This document shows positions 4,901 to 52,198 of a DNA stretch of 64,000 nucleotides, piece after piece. The position numbers and the translations under genes are program-made. The notes under the pieces are model-generated. The model saw only the letters and a list, made by a program, of their open reading frames with translations. It was not told where the DNA came from and made no database searches. The DNA is taken from contig JBBRSP010000002.1 in assembly GCA_038245295.1 (NCBI GenBank), forward strand, positions 160,001 to 224,000. Direction: 5' to 3'. Each line of letters starts with the position of its first letter. Position 1 is the stretch's first letter. The DNA comes from Candidatus Binatia bacterium. GTDB taxonomy: Bacteria; Desulfobacterota; Binatia; HRBIN30.

Positions 4901-7900
4901 CGGCGAGGAATTGCTCGGCGTTCCGCGTCGCAGCGTTCGGGCGCACACGACGTTGCGCTGCGCTCGTCCGACCGACGGCTTTGGCGGGAGCACTCGGCAT
5001 CAACACCGGCGTCGGGTGCTGGCCGTCTCGGCGCGCGCGCTCGGCCAGCAAGGTGGCTCCCTTGGCCTCCCACAGCTCGATGGCGCGCCGCTCCTCGGCG
5101 TCCGCTTCGGCGGCGCGGCCGGTGGCGCGCAATGCCGTCGCCAGCGCCAGACGGGCGTCGGCGTGATCGAGCAACGCGTCGGTTGCGGCGGCAATCGCCA
5201 CGGCGGATTGCGCCAGCTCCACCGCAACCTTCGTCTCGCCCCGGCTTGCCAGTGCCTCGGCGCGCACGCCGCGCCAGGCAATGGCCGCCTGCAGGTCATC
5301 GCCGGCGAGCGCCTCGCTTTCCTGGCTCGATCTCTGCGCTTCCGCCACCTTACCCTGAGCCAGCTGTGCTCGTGCCAATAGCGCCCCGGCGCGCGCCGCA
5401 TCGATGCCGAGGCCGAGCTCGCGCAACCCCTCGTACGCGCCTTTCAGTTTACCCTCGGCGGCGAGGGCGTCGCCTTCGAGCAAGTCGATGCGCCCGGCAA
5501 ACACATCGGCCTCGAAGAGCCGGTGCGCGATGCCCAAGTCCTCCACCATCTTGCGCGACGACGCGATCATGCGCCGCGCCGCTTCGGTGCGGCCGCGCAA
5601 CGCTTCGAGTACTCCTTGGCAGCTCAGCGCCACGGCCTCCACGGCCGGCGCACCCTGCGTGATGCGCAGCACGCGCACGACATCGAGACAGCGGCCGCTG
5701 GCGCGGGTCACCGGACTCGGTCCCCACAGAGCCGCCAGCGGCGCACCGGCCAGCACCGCATTGGCCCGGCGTCGATCGCCCGCTTTGCGTGCCGCCGCCA
5801 AGGCCTTGTCGAGCGCCGCTTCCGACGCGCCGACCTTGCCGAGTCGCGCCAGGGCCTGAGCGTGCACCGAATGGGCTTTGGCTTCGCCGGCGTCGTCGCC
5901 CAAATTGGCCAGCTCAGCGGCCGCCGTGGCGACGGCATCGGCCGTGGCTTGCAGCTTTTGTGGCTCGGTCAGCGCCGTGAGCTGGCCCACGAAGCAGGTA
6001 TGCCAGGCGTTGAGGCGGGGGTTCAGCGATCCACGCCCGTCATTCCGGCGAAAGCCGGAATTTCCCGAGCATTCCCGGGTGGTTTCCAGTTGAGGAGATC
6101 CCGGCTTTCGCCGGGATGACGATATGGGACCTTCAGTGGTCGCGGGAGCTGGGAGAAATCTGCCCAGCTCTTCAATCGCGTTTGCCGCAGCCACGACATC
6201 CCCGGCGCTGAGCAATGCTTCGCACCAGTCGAGGGCTAGCTCGGCTCGGTTCGGGTGGTCGGGGTCGAGACGGTCGATGGCTCGGCCGAGTAGGTTTGCG
6301 GCCAGCGGCGTGTCGTCGCGCGCCAGGGCGCGTTTTCCCGCGGCGGCAAGACGCTGTGCGGCGCGTTCGCCAAGAGCCTTGCCGTTGGCGTCGAGGGGGC
6401 CCAATTCGCGGCGCAGCTGGTGCGCCTGCTCGAGGTGCCAGCCGATGGTTTCGTCGTGTTCGGCGGCGTCGCCGACTTGGGCCTCGATCCAATCCGCCAG
6501 ACGTTCGTGCAGCTCGGCGCGCGTGCCCTTGAGCAGGCGGCGATAGGCGGCGTCGCGGATCAGCACGTGATGGAAACGCAGCACCGGCTCGCCGAGAAAC
6601 CAGCCGCTGTCGGGCTCGATCAATTCGCTGCGCCGCAGCAACTCGAGTCGCGCATCGAGGTCGGCGGCATGTTGCGGCAGCAGCGCCGCCACGGCACTAC
6701 GCGAGAAGTGGCGGCCGACCACGGCGGCGCACTCCAACACGCTACGCTCCTCAGGTCTTAGGCGCTCGATGCGCGCCGCCAACAGGGCGTGGATCGTCGG
6801 CGGCATCTCCAAGGCCGCCAACCCGGCGCCGGCTGTCCAACGTTCGCCCTCTTTGGTCAGCGCGCCTTCGCGCACCAGCATGCGCACCAACTCGCCGACG
6901 AACAGCGGATTGCCTTCACTGGTGGCCAGCACCTTGGCAGCGACAGCGGCGGGCAGATCAGCGGCGCCAATCACGCTGGCGGCCAGGCGCATGGCGGCGC
7001 CGGCATCGAGGCCGCCGAGGGTGACGACGTCGGAAACGAAGCCACCCGGCGTCACCAGCGACGAGCGCAGATCACGCAGCTCCGGGCGTGCGCCGATCAG
7101 GACCAACAGCGGTACGCCGCTGCCCCACTGCACCAGATGTTCGACCAGGTCGAGCAACAACGACCCAGCCCAGTGCAGGTCGTCGATGATCAGGATGACC
7201 GGTTTGACGGCGGCAAGTCCGGTGAGCAGGCGGCGGATGACGAAGAAGGTCTCTTCGGTCGACGCCGGCTTGCCGGCGAGCAACGCGCTGATGCCCTTTA
7301 CGATGCGGGCTCGCTCGACCTCATCGCCCGGTGCGGCGGCAGCGAGCGCCGCATTCTGTGTCGGGCTGTCACTGCCGAGGAATTCACGCAGCGCCGCGGC
7401 GATCGGCGCGAACGTGGCGCCGCCGGCGGCGTCGCATTGCGCGGTCAGCACACTCACCGTATTTTCGTGTCGTTCGACAAACTCGTCGATCAGTCGCGAC
7501 TTCCCCAGCCCCGGTGAGCCAAGCAAAACGGCGAGCCGTGCCGCCGGCTTCGCCACGGCGGCGTCGTAGACGGCATTGATGCGCCCCAGCTCCTCGGCAC
7601 GCCCGACGAAAGCGGCGGTCGCGGCGCCCACCGGACGCTTGAGCGACACAACGCGGTAGCCTTTGACGGTCTCGGCGCGCCCCTTGAGCGTCAGGCTGCC
7701 AAGCGGCTCCAGGGTCACCAGTGACGCCACCAGTCGATGCGTCGCCTCGCCGATCACCACCTCACCGTCGCGCGCCTCTTGCTGCAAGCGAGCGGCGACA
7801 TTGACCGGATCACCGACGATGTCGGTGTTGTCGGCACTGACGACAACTTCACCCGTATTGATGCCGACGCGCAGGCCGATCTCACCGACGGCCGCGAGAC

Positions 7901-38512: not shown

Positions 38513-38823
38513 GTCATTCCGGCGAAAGCCGGAATCTCCCCAGCATTTTTGGCCTTCCACTCGAGGCGATCCCGGCTTTCGAGTGTGTCGATTTACTCGG
38601 TAACCAAATTTGAAACCGAGCAGACCTATCCGTCATACCGGCGAAAGCCGGTATCTCGCCAGCTTTCGAGGCTTCCAGCAGGGGGAGATCCCGGCTTTCG
38701 CCAGGATGACGTTGCTTCATTTCAGTTCATCGACAGACTCGAAAGCCGGAATCCAGTGACGGAAACCCAGCCGAACGCACCGCTTCGATTCCGGCAATGG
38801 GTCCCGGCTTTCGCCGGGACGAC
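38513..38823. repeat. cluster of GTCAT..CCGGCGAAAGCCGG REPs surrounding a 160-bp MITE
   Basis: REP arms at 38513, 38569, 38631, 38688, 38741 and 38800. Confidence 0.85.
38581..38740 (-). mobile_element. 160-bp MITE (family B) inserted between REP half-sites
   Basis: Ends GAGTGTGTCGAT / ATCGACAGACTC; internal REP doublet; body close to the reverse complement of 50113-50272. Confidence 0.8.
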
Positions 38824-39675: not shown

Positions 39676-39716
39676 CGCGGTCGGGTCACGGATGGCGGAA
39701 ACGGTAGGCGCAGGCT

Positions 39717-40271
39717 TCAGCCTGCGTTCAGACCGCCGGCACTCTGCGCCCGCCGCACCAGTTGCTCACCGCTCAACAGCGGCAATGTATCGCTAACCGG
39801 TCGCCGTCCCTTGAGCTCGCTGTACGTGTGCCGATACCAGCCAGCGCTGACTTCTTCCTCGCTGTAGAGCTGTGCCAGGAATGCATAGGTGGCGGGGTCA
39901 CTCTGCTTGGCGGAATCGCGACCCCGATCGAGCGCCTTCTTGCAGCCGCTCATACGGGCGGCATCGCGCTTGGTGACACGGTTCAGCCCATCGAGCTGCG
40001 CCACAAAGCCCTGCAGATCTTTCAGCTCCGCCAACTGTTCATCCAAGATGGCATCGACACAGGCGGGACCTGGCGCACTACCAAGAGCGCGCAGGCGCTC
40101 GGCCAGCAGGCGCGCATGTGTTGCTTCTCGTTCGGCGATGATCAGATGTCCGGCACGCAGACGCGCATCCGGTTCGAGAGCGGCCCAAGCCACGTAGAGC
40201 CGCGCGCCCCACGCTTCGAGTGCCCGGAAGACGTTCAGACCTTCGAGTATCGCGTCCCGCGCGTTCTCCAT
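39717..40271 (-). CDS. ferritin-like domain protein
   Basis: Helical; EREATH (ExxH), RLRALG. Confidence 0.6.
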   Translation of the reverse strand: MENARDAILEGLNVFRALEAWGARLYVAWAALEPDARLRAGHLIIAEREATHARLLAERLRALGSAPGPACVDAILDEQLAELKDLQGFVAQLDGLNRVTKRDAARMSGCKKALDRGRDSAKQSDPATYAFLAQLYSEEEVSAGWYRHTYSELKGRRPVSDTLPLLSGEQLVRRAQSAGGLNAG

Positions 40272-40434
40272 CGCGACCCTCCACCGTAGATTGGTCGACT
40301 CTGCTTACGCCGACCGGTGGTTCGGTACAATCAGCAAAGGCCGGGAACCGATCTATGCGGTGGTCGCTCGAGGAAGGTAAAGTCGCACCGCCGCCACTCT
40401 TTGTCACAGCTCGCCGTCATAGCTTGTCCACCTC

Positions 40435-40602
40435 CGTCATACCGGCGAAAGCCGGTATCTCGCCGGCTTTCGAGGCTTCCAGCAACCATCCCGGTTTTCA
40501 CCGGGATGACGTTGCTCCACTTTGGTTTTACGACAGTCTCTTTTGCTGGGATGACGTTGCTTCGTTTCAGTTTATCGACAGTCTCCTTCGCCGGGGTGAA
40601 GG
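40435..40602. mobile_element. truncated nested MITE-B composite
   Basis: Two successive MITE ends (..TTTTACGACAGTCTC 40540; ..TTTATCGACAGTCTC 40585), each followed by a 4-nt loop and REP arm; matches the reverse complement of ~50064-50222. Confidence 0.75.
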
Positions 40603-46589: not shown

Positions 46590-46694
46590 GGGGTGCGTCT
46601 CTACCGCAGGCTGAAGCCTGCGGCTACCTCCGCGCCCTCCGCGCGCGCCTCGTTGATCGCGGGCGCATGTCGGGGCAATGGGTAGGCGCAAGCT

Positions 46695-47354
46695 TCAGCT
46701 TGCGCTGTCGGCGGCGAACGCACCGACTTCCGGCAACAGCACATCGGCGCCGGCGGCCTCGAGCTCCCCACGGGTTGTCGACGTCAGCACGGCGACCGCC
46801 AACATCCCGGCACGCTTGGCCGCTTCGATGCCGTGCACCGAGTCCTCGATCACCGCACAAACCGACGGCGCCAATCCAAGGCGGGACGCGGCGACCAGGA
46901 ACACCTCGGGATCAGGCTTGCCATGGCTCACATCCTCGGCGGTCACGACGGCATCGAGCATCGACGCGGCACCGAGGATTTCGATCACCAAGGAAATGTT
47001 TGCTGCCGGGCCGCTCGAAGCGATTGCCACCTTGGCGCCGTGCTGACGCAATTCGCCGAAGATCTGCGGCACGCGATCGTAAATACGGATAGCGCCGCCG
47101 CGCACCAGGTCGCGGTAGATGGTCTCCTTACGTTCACCGAGCTCATCGATGCGCTGCGGGCTCGCGTCGGCAATCCAAGCCGGGATGATGCTGGCGTTGC
47201 GTTGACCGAAGGTCTGCTGAAAGCGCTCGGCGGTGAACGGAATGCCGACCTCGTCGCCGAGCTGCGCCCAGGCGCGCCGATGCGCCTCGGCGCTGTCGAT
47301 GAGCACGCCATCCATGTCGAAGATCACACCTTTGGGTGGCTGTGGTCTGGTCAT
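46695..47354 (-). CDS. HAD family phosphatase (beta-PGM-like)
   Basis: FDMDGVLIDS, ASS, KPDPE, EDS..GI.AA. Confidence 0.92.
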   Translation of the reverse strand: MTRPQPPKGVIFDMDGVLIDSAEAHRRAWAQLGDEVGIPFTAERFQQTFGQRNASIIPAWIADASPQRIDELGERKETIYRDLVRGGAIRIYDRVPQIFGELRQHGAKVAIASSGPAANISLVIEILGAASMLDAVVTAEDVSHGKPDPEVFLVAASRLGLAPSVCAVIEDSVHGIEAAKRAGMLAVAVLTSTTRGELEAAGADVLLPEVGAFAADSAS

Positions 47355-48789: not shown

Positions 48790-49890
48790 CTACCGAGTTC
48801 TGAGCAGAGCGCGACCGGGAACCGGCGAGCGGCCGGCGAAACGCTCCGCCGGCCGGATCTTCGCCCATGCATCGAGTAGCGACGTCATCTCGCGCGGCGC
48901 GCTCGCATGCAGCACCACTCCGGCAGCGCCGGCGTTGAACTGGTCGAGGATGCGCTGGGCGCAATGCGCCGCCGAACCGGTGGCGTTGCTGCTGCTGAGC
49001 CATTCGGCCGGGTAGATGTCGCGGATGCGGCGCAGCTCGTCGTCGGTGAACTCGGTGGCGTCGGCGAAACGTCCTTGGAGCAACTCGTGGCCGCGTAGTT
49101 TGTCGAGGACACCGCGATCCCAGCCGTTGGCGTCGACGATGAGCTCGCCGTAGCCGGGGATCTGCATGTACGTGGTCATGCGGCGCACGACGTGTCGCAG
49201 CTCCACGGATTCGGGGAGATCGCAGGCGGTAACGAGGCAGGACCATACCTGCACGCTCTTCGGATCGCGTCCGGCCTTCTCGGCTCCGGCGCGGGCGCGG
49301 GCGACGCAATCGGCGACGGCTTGATCCGTCCAGTGTGAGTGCAGCAGGATGCCATCGAAGTGTTCACCGGCAAGCTGCTGTGTCTTTGGGCCCAACGCCG
49401 CCATCAGCAACGGCGGCGTGTGCTCGACGGTATGGTCGAGGCTCAAGTAGGCGAACTTGCCGGCCGGACCGTCGTGGCCGAACACCTTCTCTCCAGCCCA
49501 CAGGCGGCGCAGCAGTTGCGCCGTGTCGGCCAGCATCGCCGGCGTGGCGCGTGGGATGCCCCACATGTCGGAGCGCATGTCGAAGCCGCGGCCAAGGCCG
49601 AGGGCGAAGCGGCCGCCGGTGAGTGCGCTCATCGTCGAGGCGATCGAGGCGGTGAGCATGATGTGACGGGTGTTGGGATTGGTGACACCGACAGCAACCG
49701 CCAGCTCGCTGGTCAGCGCTCCGGCGGCTCCACTCAGTGTCGCTGCTTCCTTCACATCGTGGCGTTCGGAGATCCAAACCGAGCCGAGGCCGACCGTCTC
49801 GGCGTCGCGTACCTCTTGCAGCATGGGGCGCGGGTCGGCAACGCGGCCGGGGAGGGTGTAGAAACCAAGCTCGGGGAATCGTGATGGCAT
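48790..49890 (-). CDS. LLM class F420-dependent oxidoreductase (MSMEG_2249/TIGR03857-like)
   Basis: ELGFYTLPG..SER..KEA..NTRH..GHDGPAG. Confidence 0.8.
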   Translation of the reverse strand: MPSRFPELGFYTLPGRVADPRPMLQEVRDAETVGLGSVWISERHDVKEAATLSGAAGALTSELAVAVGVTNPNTRHIMLTASIASTMSALTGGRFALGLGRGFDMRSDMWGIPRATPAMLADTAQLLRRLWAGEKVFGHDGPAGKFAYLSLDHTVEHTPPLLMAALGPKTQQLAGEHFDGILLHSHWTDQAVADCVARARAGAEKAGRDPKSVQVWSCLVTACDLPESVELRHVVRRMTTYMQIPGYGELIVDANGWDRGVLDKLRGHELLQGRFADATEFTDDELRRIRDIYPAEWLSSSNATGSAAHCAQRILDQFNAGAAGVVLHASAPREMTSLLDAWAKIRPAERFAGRSPVPGRALLRTR

Positions 49891-50067
49891 GGCGGTATCG
49901 TTTGCATCGAGTCGGCGGTGCGAGCAACCCCCGGCGCCGGGCTTCGACCCTTATGTTCCCGACTGCACTCGGCTTCTGAGTCCGCAGACCCAACCCTCAC
50001 CCTAACCCCAATGTCGTTAAGTTAGCGAGGGTGAGGGCCAATGCGGAGCCTCGTCATAGCGGCGGAG

Positions 50068-50391
50068 GACACTGTCGATAAACTGAAATGAGGCAACGTC
50101 ATCCCGGCGGAAGAGTCTGTCGTAAAACCAAAGTGGAGCAATGTCATCCCGGTGAAAACCGGGATCTCCCCCTGCTGGAAGCCTCGAAAGCTGGCGAGAT
50201 ACCGGCTTTCGCCGGTATGACGGAAAGGTCTGCTCGGTTTCAAATATGGTTTCCGAGAAAATCGACACACTCGAAAGCCGGGATCTCCTCGAGTAGAAGG
50301 CCGAGAATGCTGGGGAGATACCGGCTTTCGCCGGTATGACGGGGGTGTTTGCGCTGTTTGAAACGATGAATCAGAGAAAGTCGACAGACTC
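50068..50391 (+). mobile_element. MITE family B (outer copy; 160 bp once the nested copy is removed)
   Basis: Ends GACACTGTCGA / TCGACAGACTC; GGAG duplicated at 50064-50067 and 50392-50395 in a REP loop. Confidence 0.8.
50113..50272 (+). mobile_element. MITE family B (inner copy, 160 bp)
   Basis: Ends GAGTCTGTCG / CGACACACTC; flanked by GGAA / GAAA within the REP loop of the outer copy. Confidence 0.8.
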
Positions 50392-50662
50392 GGAGGCCGG
50401 GACGACGCACTTCTCTTGCTAACTTAACGACATTGACCCTAACCCTCTCCTAGATCTTGCCGGACCATTCGAGCTGAGAGAGGGAACCAGTGGCTTCCGC
50501 AGGCAGCTTTTCCAGACCGCCCAGAATGAACGCGGTCAGTTTATGTATAGGAGGCCGCCTACAGAGGGAAGCGCCGGACGGGGGCCGTCTCGAAGGGCGT
50601 CCCAGATACTTCGCCGCGGCGATCACAACTGCTAAGCGACGGCGGAAAGAGGGAGAACCCAC

Positions 50663-51883
50663 ATGAGTAGAATCGTCGTTCTTGGAGGCTGTGGCGCTGT
50701 TGGCAGTGTGGCGGTGAAGACGTTGGCCAACCGGCCCGAGGTATCGCACGTCGTCATCGGCGACATGAACGACGCGCGCGCCAAGGAGCTGATCGCCACT
50801 CTCGGTGCCGAGCGCGTGTCGTTTCGAGCCGTCGACGCCGGTGACACGGCGAGTGTGAAGCAGGCGATTGCGGGCGCCGACCTGGTGCTCAACTGTGTCG
50901 GACCGTTCTACAAGACGGTGAAGACGATTCTTTCCGCCGTGCTCGACGCCGGCATCAACTACGTCGACATCTGCGACGACGTCGATGTCACGCTCGACAT
51001 CCTGAAGATGGACGACGCGGCCAAGCGCGCCGGCATCACGGCGTTGATCGGCATGGGCGCCTCGCCGGGTGTCACCAACCTGCTCGCCAAGTTCATCGCG
51101 GAAACGCAGCTCGACAGCACCGACTCGGTCGACATCTTCCACTGCCACGGCGGTGAAGCGATCGAAGGTCCTGGGGTCATCGGCCACCGCTTCCATTGCA
51201 TGAGCATCGACATTCCGATGTTCCTCGACGGTGAGCTGCGCTACGTGCGCTACTTCGAGCCCGACGGCATCGCGTTGCGTGAGACGTTCGACTTCCCCGT
51301 TCTCGGACCGATGCCCTTGTTCCCCTATCCGCATCCGGAGCAGGTGACGCTGCCGCGTTACTTGAAAGTACGGCAGGTTACCAACAAGGGCTCGGTGATT
51401 CCAATCGAGTATTACCAGCTCACCGCCGAGATGTGCCGCCTCGGCCTCACCAGCAAGGAGCCGCTACAGGTCGGCGGACAATCGATCACGCCGTATGACT
51501 TTGCGACGGCCTTCCTGATCCGCGAGCGTGATCGAATATTGCGTGAGCAGAATTTCGGAATGCAGCGCGGTTGTGTCTCGGTGGTCGTGAAGGGAATCAA
51601 GGCGAGCCAGCCGCGCGAGGTGCGTATCCATATGGCGTCGAGCGCCGGTGGACTCGGTGAAGGTACCGGAATCCCCGCGGCGATTGGGGCGTTGCTGGTC
51701 CTGTCCGGGAAGGCGACGACGCGTGGTGTGATTCCACCGGAGGGTTGCCTCGTGCCGACCGACTTCATCGTATTGGCGGGCGAGATCATGTCGTCGGGAA
51801 TGCATGGCTCCGGGCTTGGGCGCACGCCGCTCCTCGTGGAAATCATCAAGGCCGATGGGTCGGTAGAGAAGATGGAAATGTAG
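50663..51883 (+). CDS. saccharopine dehydrogenase-like NAD(P)-dependent oxidoreductase
   Basis: VLGGCGAVG, NCVGPFY, YVDICDD, GMGASPGVTN, HPE. Confidence 0.88.
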   Translation: MSRIVVLGGCGAVGSVAVKTLANRPEVSHVVIGDMNDARAKELIATLGAERVSFRAVDAGDTASVKQAIAGADLVLNCVGPFYKTVKTILSAVLDAGINYVDICDDVDVTLDILKMDDAAKRAGITALIGMGASPGVTNLLAKFIAETQLDSTDSVDIFHCHGGEAIEGPGVIGHRFHCMSIDIPMFLDGELRYVRYFEPDGIALRETFDFPVLGPMPLFPYPHPEQVTLPRYLKVRQVTNKGSVIPIEYYQLTAEMCRLGLTSKEPLQVGGQSITPYDFATAFLIRERDRILREQNFGMQRGCVSVVVKGIKASQPREVRIHMASSAGGLGEGTGIPAAIGALLVLSGKATTRGVIPPEGCLVPTDFIVLAGEIMSSGMHGSGLGRTPLLVEIIKADGSVEKMEM

Positions 51884-52041
51884 GCGGACTGGCGTCCGCC
51901 AGGCGCAGGCATAGGCTTGGGCTGAGGCGGCTTTGCCCATTCATTCAAAGATCGACTGCTGCTCAGCTGACCGCAGGCTGAAGCCTGCGCCTACCACGCT
52001 AAATATGCAGGTGGAATCGAAACCGGTAGGCGCAGGCTTTA

Positions 52042-52198
52042 GAGGCTGTCTCAAAACCTTGCGGAGCCGGCTTCGACAGGCTCAGCCTGAGCGGGTGCTT
52101 GGTTGATTTTCAGCGACATTTTGTCCGCTCGCCCTGAGCCCCGCTCATCCTGAGCTTGTCGAAGGACGAAGGGTGAGCCTATGTTTTGAGACAGCCTC
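52042..52198. mobile_element. 157-bp MITE inserted in the loop of a GTAG REP
   Basis: Perfect 16-bp TIR GAGGCTGTCTCAAAAC; TTTA duplicated (52038-52041, 52199-52202); removing it restores GTAGGCGCAGGCTTTAGCCTGCG. Confidence 0.9.

Follow-up and report, generated by a model that had tools for sequence, protein, structure and literature searches.

The window, the whole 64,000-nucleotide stretch of Candidatus Binatia DNA analysed here, holds a nest of repeat elements at 49990-50450, enclosed by a divergent gene pair with an LLM oxidoreductase gene on the minus strand to its left and a dehydrogenase-like ORF on the plus strand to its right. The host assembly, G000, comprises 6.63 Mb in 129 contigs and is 96.6% complete by markers. 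In the list below, A stands for the outer element of the nest and B for the family of the two elements inside it.

6038..6121, plus strand: CGTC REP dimer without MITE ends, in the same window
38581..38740, minus strand: B copy with mixed ends (r2-l2), with half of a B-type dimer on one side and a native REP dimer on the other
40433..40585, minus strand: truncated B nest, made of a tandem pair of 45-bp right-end units plus a dimer, with no IRL end
48790-49890, minus strand: F420-dependent LLM oxidoreductase, left of the nest
49990..50008, plus strand: left portion of A's target repeat (CCCTCACCCTAACCCTCTCC-type), with the first copy of the 10-bp duplication at 49999-50008
50009..50435, plus strand: MITE A, IS4-type, with 18-bp TIRs at 50009-50026 and 50418-50435, and a 99-bp core plus the nested B elements
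50052..50067, plus strand: outer arm plus GGAG loop from the first CGTC REP in A, the site targeted by the middle B; the intact form is found in a 167-bp A copy
50068..50391, plus strand: middle MITE B, subfamily r2-l1, of the A-borne lineage, 160 bp after removal of the inner copy and 4 bp
50097..50112, plus strand: outer arm plus loop from the first REP in the middle B, the site targeted by the inner B
50113..50272, plus strand: inner MITE B, subfamily r1-l2, 160 bp, with an intact CGTC REP dimer and two free loops
50142-50169 (plus strand) and 50195-50222 (minus strand): hairpins of the inner B, which fit the published SRM motif
50273..50276, plus strand: second copy of the 4-bp loop (GAAA against GGAA, one mismatch)
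50314..50341, minus strand: second REP hairpin of the middle B, still empty
50392..50407, plus strand: duplicated GGAG and outer arm of A's second REP, the dimer being collapsed by 68 bp
50436..50450, plus strand: second copy of the 10-bp duplication and remainder of A's target repeat
50663-51883, plus strand: dehydrogenase-like ORF, right of the nest

Several copies of a GTAG-tagged REP family, unrelated to the nest, also occur in the window (20856, 34878, 39696-39731, 46601-46706, 48767 and 51968-52042).

The original prediction had described the nest as three elements lying one inside another, and a re-check of the sequence bore this out at every coordinate. The outer element is 427 bp long, has a perfect 18-bp TIR and an exact 10-bp duplication, and sits inside a CCCTCACCCTAACCCTCTCC repeat; the middle element is flanked by GGAG on both sides, and the inner one by GGAA and GAAA, which match at three letters of four. 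Removal of the inner copy and 4 bp from the middle element leaves 160 bp, as predicted, the length of both the inner copy and the copy at 38581-38740. One detail needs correction: the GGAG-split arms within A, which had been taken for a single REP hairpin, are real but consist of the left arm of one REP and the right arm of a second, that is, a collapsed dimer. The right end of the middle B corresponds to an IS1182 left end (IRL), and the inner B has a fold z of -4.07.

The middle B shares 74% identity with the inner B and 78% with the copy at 38581, and the latter two share 91%; because the B copies differ to this extent, the nest does not represent one collapsed repeat. The low identity of the two B copies within the nest, together with five other nests of 322-324 bp that differ in geometry and sequence, argues against the whole arrangement having arisen through misassembly or by tandem duplication at the locus. 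We regard such an origin as hardly credible, even for a short-read metagenome assembly in which the nest is not bridged by reads, as judged from the Logan unitigs of two runs (X1 and X2). These unitigs match three junctions letter for letter (49979-50034, 50091-50140 and 50238-50288), though run X1 may be the source data; among the unitigs listed none bridges the nest or spans a junction with 31 letters on both sides, and 50420-50479 has no exact cover. The copy at 38581-38740 is itself likely to be a collapsed nest.

Element A has the attributes of a MITE: it is short, multicopy and gene-less, with TIRs and a target duplication. Its target repeat, CCCTCACCCTAACCCTCTCC, is present in 152 genome copies against none in the reversed control. 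Eleven paired A copies of 167-427 bp were found in G000, and in eight of these pairs the duplication shows at most one mismatch over 9-10 bp. The ends fit the IS4-subgroup signature -AATR--------WTW, and the 10-bp duplication falls within the 10-13-bp range. A copy free of B (G000:C11:196102-196268, 167 bp) keeps the whole REP dimer; the 99-bp core of the window's A is without 68 bp of the dimer, between two GCCGG repeats. In further A copies B occupies the alternative loop or lies in the opposite orientation. A sequence variant is common to 10 of the 13 A-hosted l1 ends and was seen in 5 of 55 other l1 ends, and this sharing makes it likely that a single A(B) composite was propagated whole. 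In a tree of 63 l1 segments the A-borne copies cluster (6 changes, against 11 when shuffled) without forming a single clade, few forks being supported. Two further observations concern A-type ends: the A copy at G000:C33:34395-34656 has flanks that are near reverse complements, with no direct duplication, and resembles the outer/outer class of B described below; and a second family with such ends, 203 bp long, carries a TTCTCGATTCTG-type repeat pair (G000:C26:9117-9319 and C28:2648-2850).

Family B is far more abundant. End profiles detected about 300 B ends genome-wide (142 and 157, against none in the reversed genome); among 101 end pairs in G000, 71 delimit 159-161 bp and six delimit 322-324 bp. 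B is also a MITE by its properties, being short and multicopy, with TIRs and no transposase gene inside. Its cargo is an inverted pair of CGTC hairpins, which combine a fit to the SRM motif with a hairpin bearing the CGTC tag and so correspond to the definition of CGTC REPs: all three intact hairpins of the nest fit the motif, which has 300 matches in G000 against 29 in the control.

The insertion site of B is the 4-nt loop of a CGTC REP: CCGGC, with at most one mismatch, followed by 4 nt, directly precedes 262 of 299 B ends (a count made with a shorter end profile, for which the control gave 4 ends), as opposed to 4.0% of 20,000 random positions. The 83 simple B pairs comprise 55 that join one outer and one inner arm, 17 that join two outer arms, three that join two inner arms, and eight unclassed. 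Among the 55 outer/inner pairs, the 4-bp duplication is exact in 35 and has at most one mismatch in 51, as expected of a fixed-length target-site duplication. Two or more mismatches in the 4-bp flanks are nevertheless seen in 27 of the 83 pairs, which counts against the account proposed below.

In the 17 outer/outer pairs, and in one complete IS1182 element (L147), the element is joined to two different loops and the interval between them is missing. Because doubly filled dimers are rare (2 among 311 B ends), we favour a deletion made by the transposase, as in IS1272, over two insertions followed by recombination, which would appear the less probable course; some of these junctions may stem from the copying of a single event or from collapse in several steps. 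A model in which one loop is copied onto both sides of the junction was rejected, exactly reverse-complementary 4-mers being found in only 5 of the 17. Nests hold direct repeats of 45, 66 and 119 bp, whose collapse would be expected to leave tandem ends, orphans and hybrid 160-bp units; all of these occur in the genome, and the window's copies at 38581-38740 and 40433-40585 are counted among them. One B copy (G000:C3:120033-120351) is interrupted by another kind of element, about 160 bp long, which has short TIRs of its own, a short duplication and a GTAG REP pair.

Each B thus offers two CGTC REP loops, in support of the earlier proposal that the element carries the hairpin it targets and provides its own next landing pad. 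We assigned 280 B ends to their hosts: 97 lie in B, 32 in A, 130 in other REPs and 21 beside no REP arm (threshold control, 3/600); a looser loop count (921 against 397 in the control) was discarded. B occurs within B in both loops and both orientations, that is, in all four geometries, and each B subfamily is found inside the other, so that B-in-B insertions arose in several separate events. That B hosts 97 of the 280 ends could suggest a dedicated mechanism by which it prefers insertion into itself, but B-borne loops are in fact the least filled class: on shares that are rough and depend on host age and composite copying, 17% of B outer arms are filled (51/294), as against 39-75% in the other carriers (C, described below, 16/41; A, 13/18; D, likewise below, 30/40) and 28-50% in other REPs (41/146 before and 41/81 after control subtraction). 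We therefore consider a dedicated preference very improbable.

Who multiplies the REP dimer is a separate question. B supplies 243 of the 388 intact hairpins in G000 (control 65). The 137 dimer matches in this assembly (control 2), nine of which look spurious, include 127 with a B-type spacer, and these are distributed as follows: B ends on both sides, 100; on one side, 14; C or D flanks only, nine; no carrier, four. The suggestion that such an element spreads REPs without a RAYT is borne out to the extent that 114 of 127 intact B-type dimers stand beside B ends; a transposase (IS1182) is still needed, and an Ssn route is also open. REPIN-RAYT systems combine a GTAG tag with a RAYT flanked by the same REP, and the cargo here is CGTC-tagged; in addition, the flanks examined around five Y1 transposase matches contained no CGTC arrays, three of these flanks ending early at contig ends.

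The dimer occurs in at least four unrelated carriers: A, B and two others found in G000. Family C has no evident TIRs but conserved flanks around the CGTC dimer, often beside ATCCGTGTTCATCCGTG-like repeats (G000:C13:25440-25690, C25:40960-41210, C9:153360-153610 and C41:41110-41370). Family D, represented by G000:C5:63980-64133 (154 bp) and 12 other paired copies, has TIRs that start with GGTAGTGGGTCC, a duplication of about 8 bp, and a CGTC dimer into which B has often inserted; the dimer is absent from one 70-bp copy (C38:18276-18345). C is possibly an IS110-type mini element, and the ends of D may resemble those of IS1; a PF03400 (IS1) search in G000 gave no match. Two more B-ended families, of 130 and 192-217 bp, contain other REP pairs and use the same loops (G000:C3:394341-394470, C8:66831-66961, C5:75788-75979, C6:1573-1764 and C45:22959-23175).

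Beyond the host, a scan of 400 other genomes from the class recovered the B-end pattern in 11; since the pattern demanded a REP arm before the end, it informs on cargo, not on target choice, in these relatives. Twenty of the 26 loci examined are closed elements. At least seven distinct repeat cargos were recognised by eye between B-type ends, one of them, in G038, being the repeat class that A targets; in G001 an element with A-type ends contains the repeat class it targets itself. BLASTN of the 160-bp unit against 60 other genomes gave no full-length match, the REP part accounting for most of what aligned, so that no empty orthologous site was found. At five metagenome loci a 98-bp element with B-type ends has no evident REP, and the cargo was therefore likely gained more than once.

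How the first cargo was gained may be indicated by a small GIY-YIG (Ssn-like) gene at G000:C22:5100-6130, located between tandem CGTC REP arrays and B stacks and inside D and C flanks. It encodes a short single-domain PF01541 protein and, lying amid CGTC repeats, is a candidate ssnA-like gene; its setting points to a possible Ssn-linked route for the first gain. Two more short GIY-YIG genes (G000:C12:172419 and C43:25299) stand beside CCCTGAGCCTGTCGAAGG-type repeats, the cargo class of the 130-bp B-ended elements.

The same gene raises the possibility that what moves is the REP dimer itself, mobilised by an Ssn-like GIY-YIG nuclease or another enzyme, that it colonised MITEs as it did other intergenic DNA, and that B adds little. 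A GIY-YIG gene inside arrays of CGTC REPs (G000:C22:5444) is also what the available part of PMC11893778 describes for ssnA, and the four unrelated carriers, the multiple cargos of B-type ends in relatives and the 98-bp element all agree with a mobile dimer. Yet only four of the 127 intact B-type dimers stand outside any carrier, and two of these share a contig with the GIY-YIG gene; the ends, length and spacer common to B copies indicate that the whole 160 bp was copied; and SsnA is reported, in the same available part, as a nuclease and not as a transposase (PMC11893778). We judge this alternative unlikely, if considerably less so than an artefactual nest or a dedicated self-preference. A mobile dimer likely accounts for the first entry of cargo and competes only with our claim on present multiplication, which is that B, judged from the arrangement of its copies, is likely to multiply its REP dimer in the present state of the genome.

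Complete elements that could provide the transposases were found for both families, all of them outside G000. The assignment of A to the IS4 type agrees with the ends, target and duplication of L083, a complete 1441-bp IS4 in the relative G036, which has a near-identical TIR (17 and 15 of the first 20 bases match the ends of A), the same target repeat and a 10-bp duplication; its protein scores 154.5 bits with NF033592 (cut-off 115) and has a YREK-type motif. For B there are five complete IS1182 with B-type ends: L070 (1758 bp), L071 (1750 bp), L147, L163 and L164. The right end of B is their left end, with 15-19 of 20 bases matching at IRL and 10-16 of 20 at IRR. None was selected by its flanks, L070 and L071 coming from a family search in five relatives and the other three from end-only and protein searches, and all five lie in hairpin loops, four of which, including those of L070 and L071, belong to CGTC REPs. 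The three that were tested score 311.6, 291 and 282.5 bits with NF033551 (cut-off 270). Of the 38 metagenome matches to the end pattern, many arose by chance or repeat a single unrelated sequence. A complete IS1182 is preceded, 39 bp upstream, by part of a second left end (L163:1072-1111), which recalls the tandem left end of IS1272L, and L138 is a 42-bp element with little beyond two IS1182-type ends. Within the G000 assembly, tblastn of the L070, L071 and L083 proteins gave no match, and at the 11 places examined among 16 NF033551 and 8 PF01609 matches no A or B ends were present at the borders; no cognate transposase for A or B was thus found in this assembly. The partners have either been lost or are absent from the assembly.

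Several components of this system have precedents, which we compare here with the available parts of the cited papers. REP-targeting IS (PMC1525189), hairpin targeting by IS1182 and arm-specific IS4 elements are already in print, and MITEs are ordinary. The original prediction, rightly noting that some IS target REPs, had left unnamed the published hairpin targeting of the IS1182 family (PMC5678879, PMC4923244). In that family, IS1272 and TnSha1 are DDE elements that target hairpins; IS1272 makes no duplication, has no target sequence consensus and removes the stem-loop, and IS1272L shows tandem duplication of a terminal segment (PMC5678879, PMC4923244). B is similar in its hairpin targets, in ends that match complete IS1182, and in the 17 of 83 pairs that lose part of the target between two loops. 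It differs in mostly duplicating the 4-nt loop of one REP class, which corresponds to pathway c of the model in PMC5678879, and in being gene-less and carrying its own target; the words MITE and nested are absent from PMC5678879. A, likewise, shares with IS4 subgroup IS4 (PMC2266710) the end signature, the 10-bp duplication and strong target-arm specificity, its partner L083 having the YREK motif, whereas A itself is non-autonomous and has a CGTC dimer as cargo, in most cases travelling together with a B inside it.

Known REP-targeting IS include ISPsy8, ISRm22, ISPpu9/10 and ISPa11 (PMC1525189) and IS1397 and IS621 (PMC3184786), and ISPpu9 has a MITE-like derivative, MITEPpu9 (PMC12288879). 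Like A and B, they have a fixed insertion point in the REP, often at the symmetry axis, and mismatched duplications in some copies; unlike B, none is shown to carry its own target REP or to nest in itself in the available parts of PMC1525189, PMC3184786 and PMC12288879. Our searches of the open-access literature turned up no bacterial MITE described as carrying and multiplying the REP that it targets.

The repeats themselves are also familiar. CGTC REPs are described as having no dedicated transposase, a RAYT not being expected (PMC3733652), and the SRM motif and an ssnA gene within such repeats have been reported (PMC11893778). The cargo of B resembles the NTS-SRM repeats with Ssn nucleases (PMC3733652, PMC11893778) in its SRM fit, its inverted dimers and the flanked GIY-YIG gene; in contrast to the CGTC REPs of PMC3733652, most intact dimers here are cargo of a DDE-type MITE. 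In REPIN-RAYT systems (PMC3116915), REP doublets are likewise the spreading unit and REPINs occur in or beside other REPINs, but the doublet here is enclosed by TIRs and target duplications, the marks of DDE transposition.

Taken together, the nest is very probably a stack of non-autonomous MITEs, IS4-type outside and two IS1182-type inside, the inner family carrying its own target hairpin; it was likely built from the outside in by transposases that likely acted in trans. An IS4 transposase would first have placed A, with its CGTC dimer, into CCCTCACCC-type repeats with a 10-bp duplication. Shared variants suggest that B then entered A's first loop, that the dimer collapsed, and that A(B) was copied as a unit. 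A B of the other subfamily lies in the first loop of that B, with the 4-nt loop duplicated; it would have inserted last. The IS1182 transposase presumably picks arm-4 nt-arm hairpins anywhere, and since each new B adds two, B would become the main supplier of free targets and nest in itself by abundance, not preference. Collapse between the 45-, 66- and 119-bp repeats would yield tandem ends, truncated copies and hybrid 160-bp elements, and a minority of junctions would join B to two loops with loss of the interval, as in IS1272 stem-loop removal.

A broader reading, which we put forward tentatively and hold to be somewhat less probable than its negation, is that CGTC/SRM dimers in this lineage are replicated chiefly by MITEs of hairpin-seeking DDE transposons, which form a cross-feeding network: A carries the target of B, the B-ended elements of G038 carry the target class of A, the A-ended element of G001 carries its own class, and nests breed hybrid MITEs. 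If this is true, hairpin-seeking MITEs would be the missing mobiliser of CGTC REPs, a question left open in the available part of PMC3733652. The finding would at least offer a testable route for the spread of these REPs, carried by MITEs that ordinary DDE enzymes mobilise, and hence a partial answer. The IS1182 elements found here are transposase candidates with a short, defined hairpin-loop target and a mostly clean 4-bp duplication, unlike the deletion mode of IS1272. Finally, an element that makes its own intergenic landing sites would spare genes and fuel its own growth.
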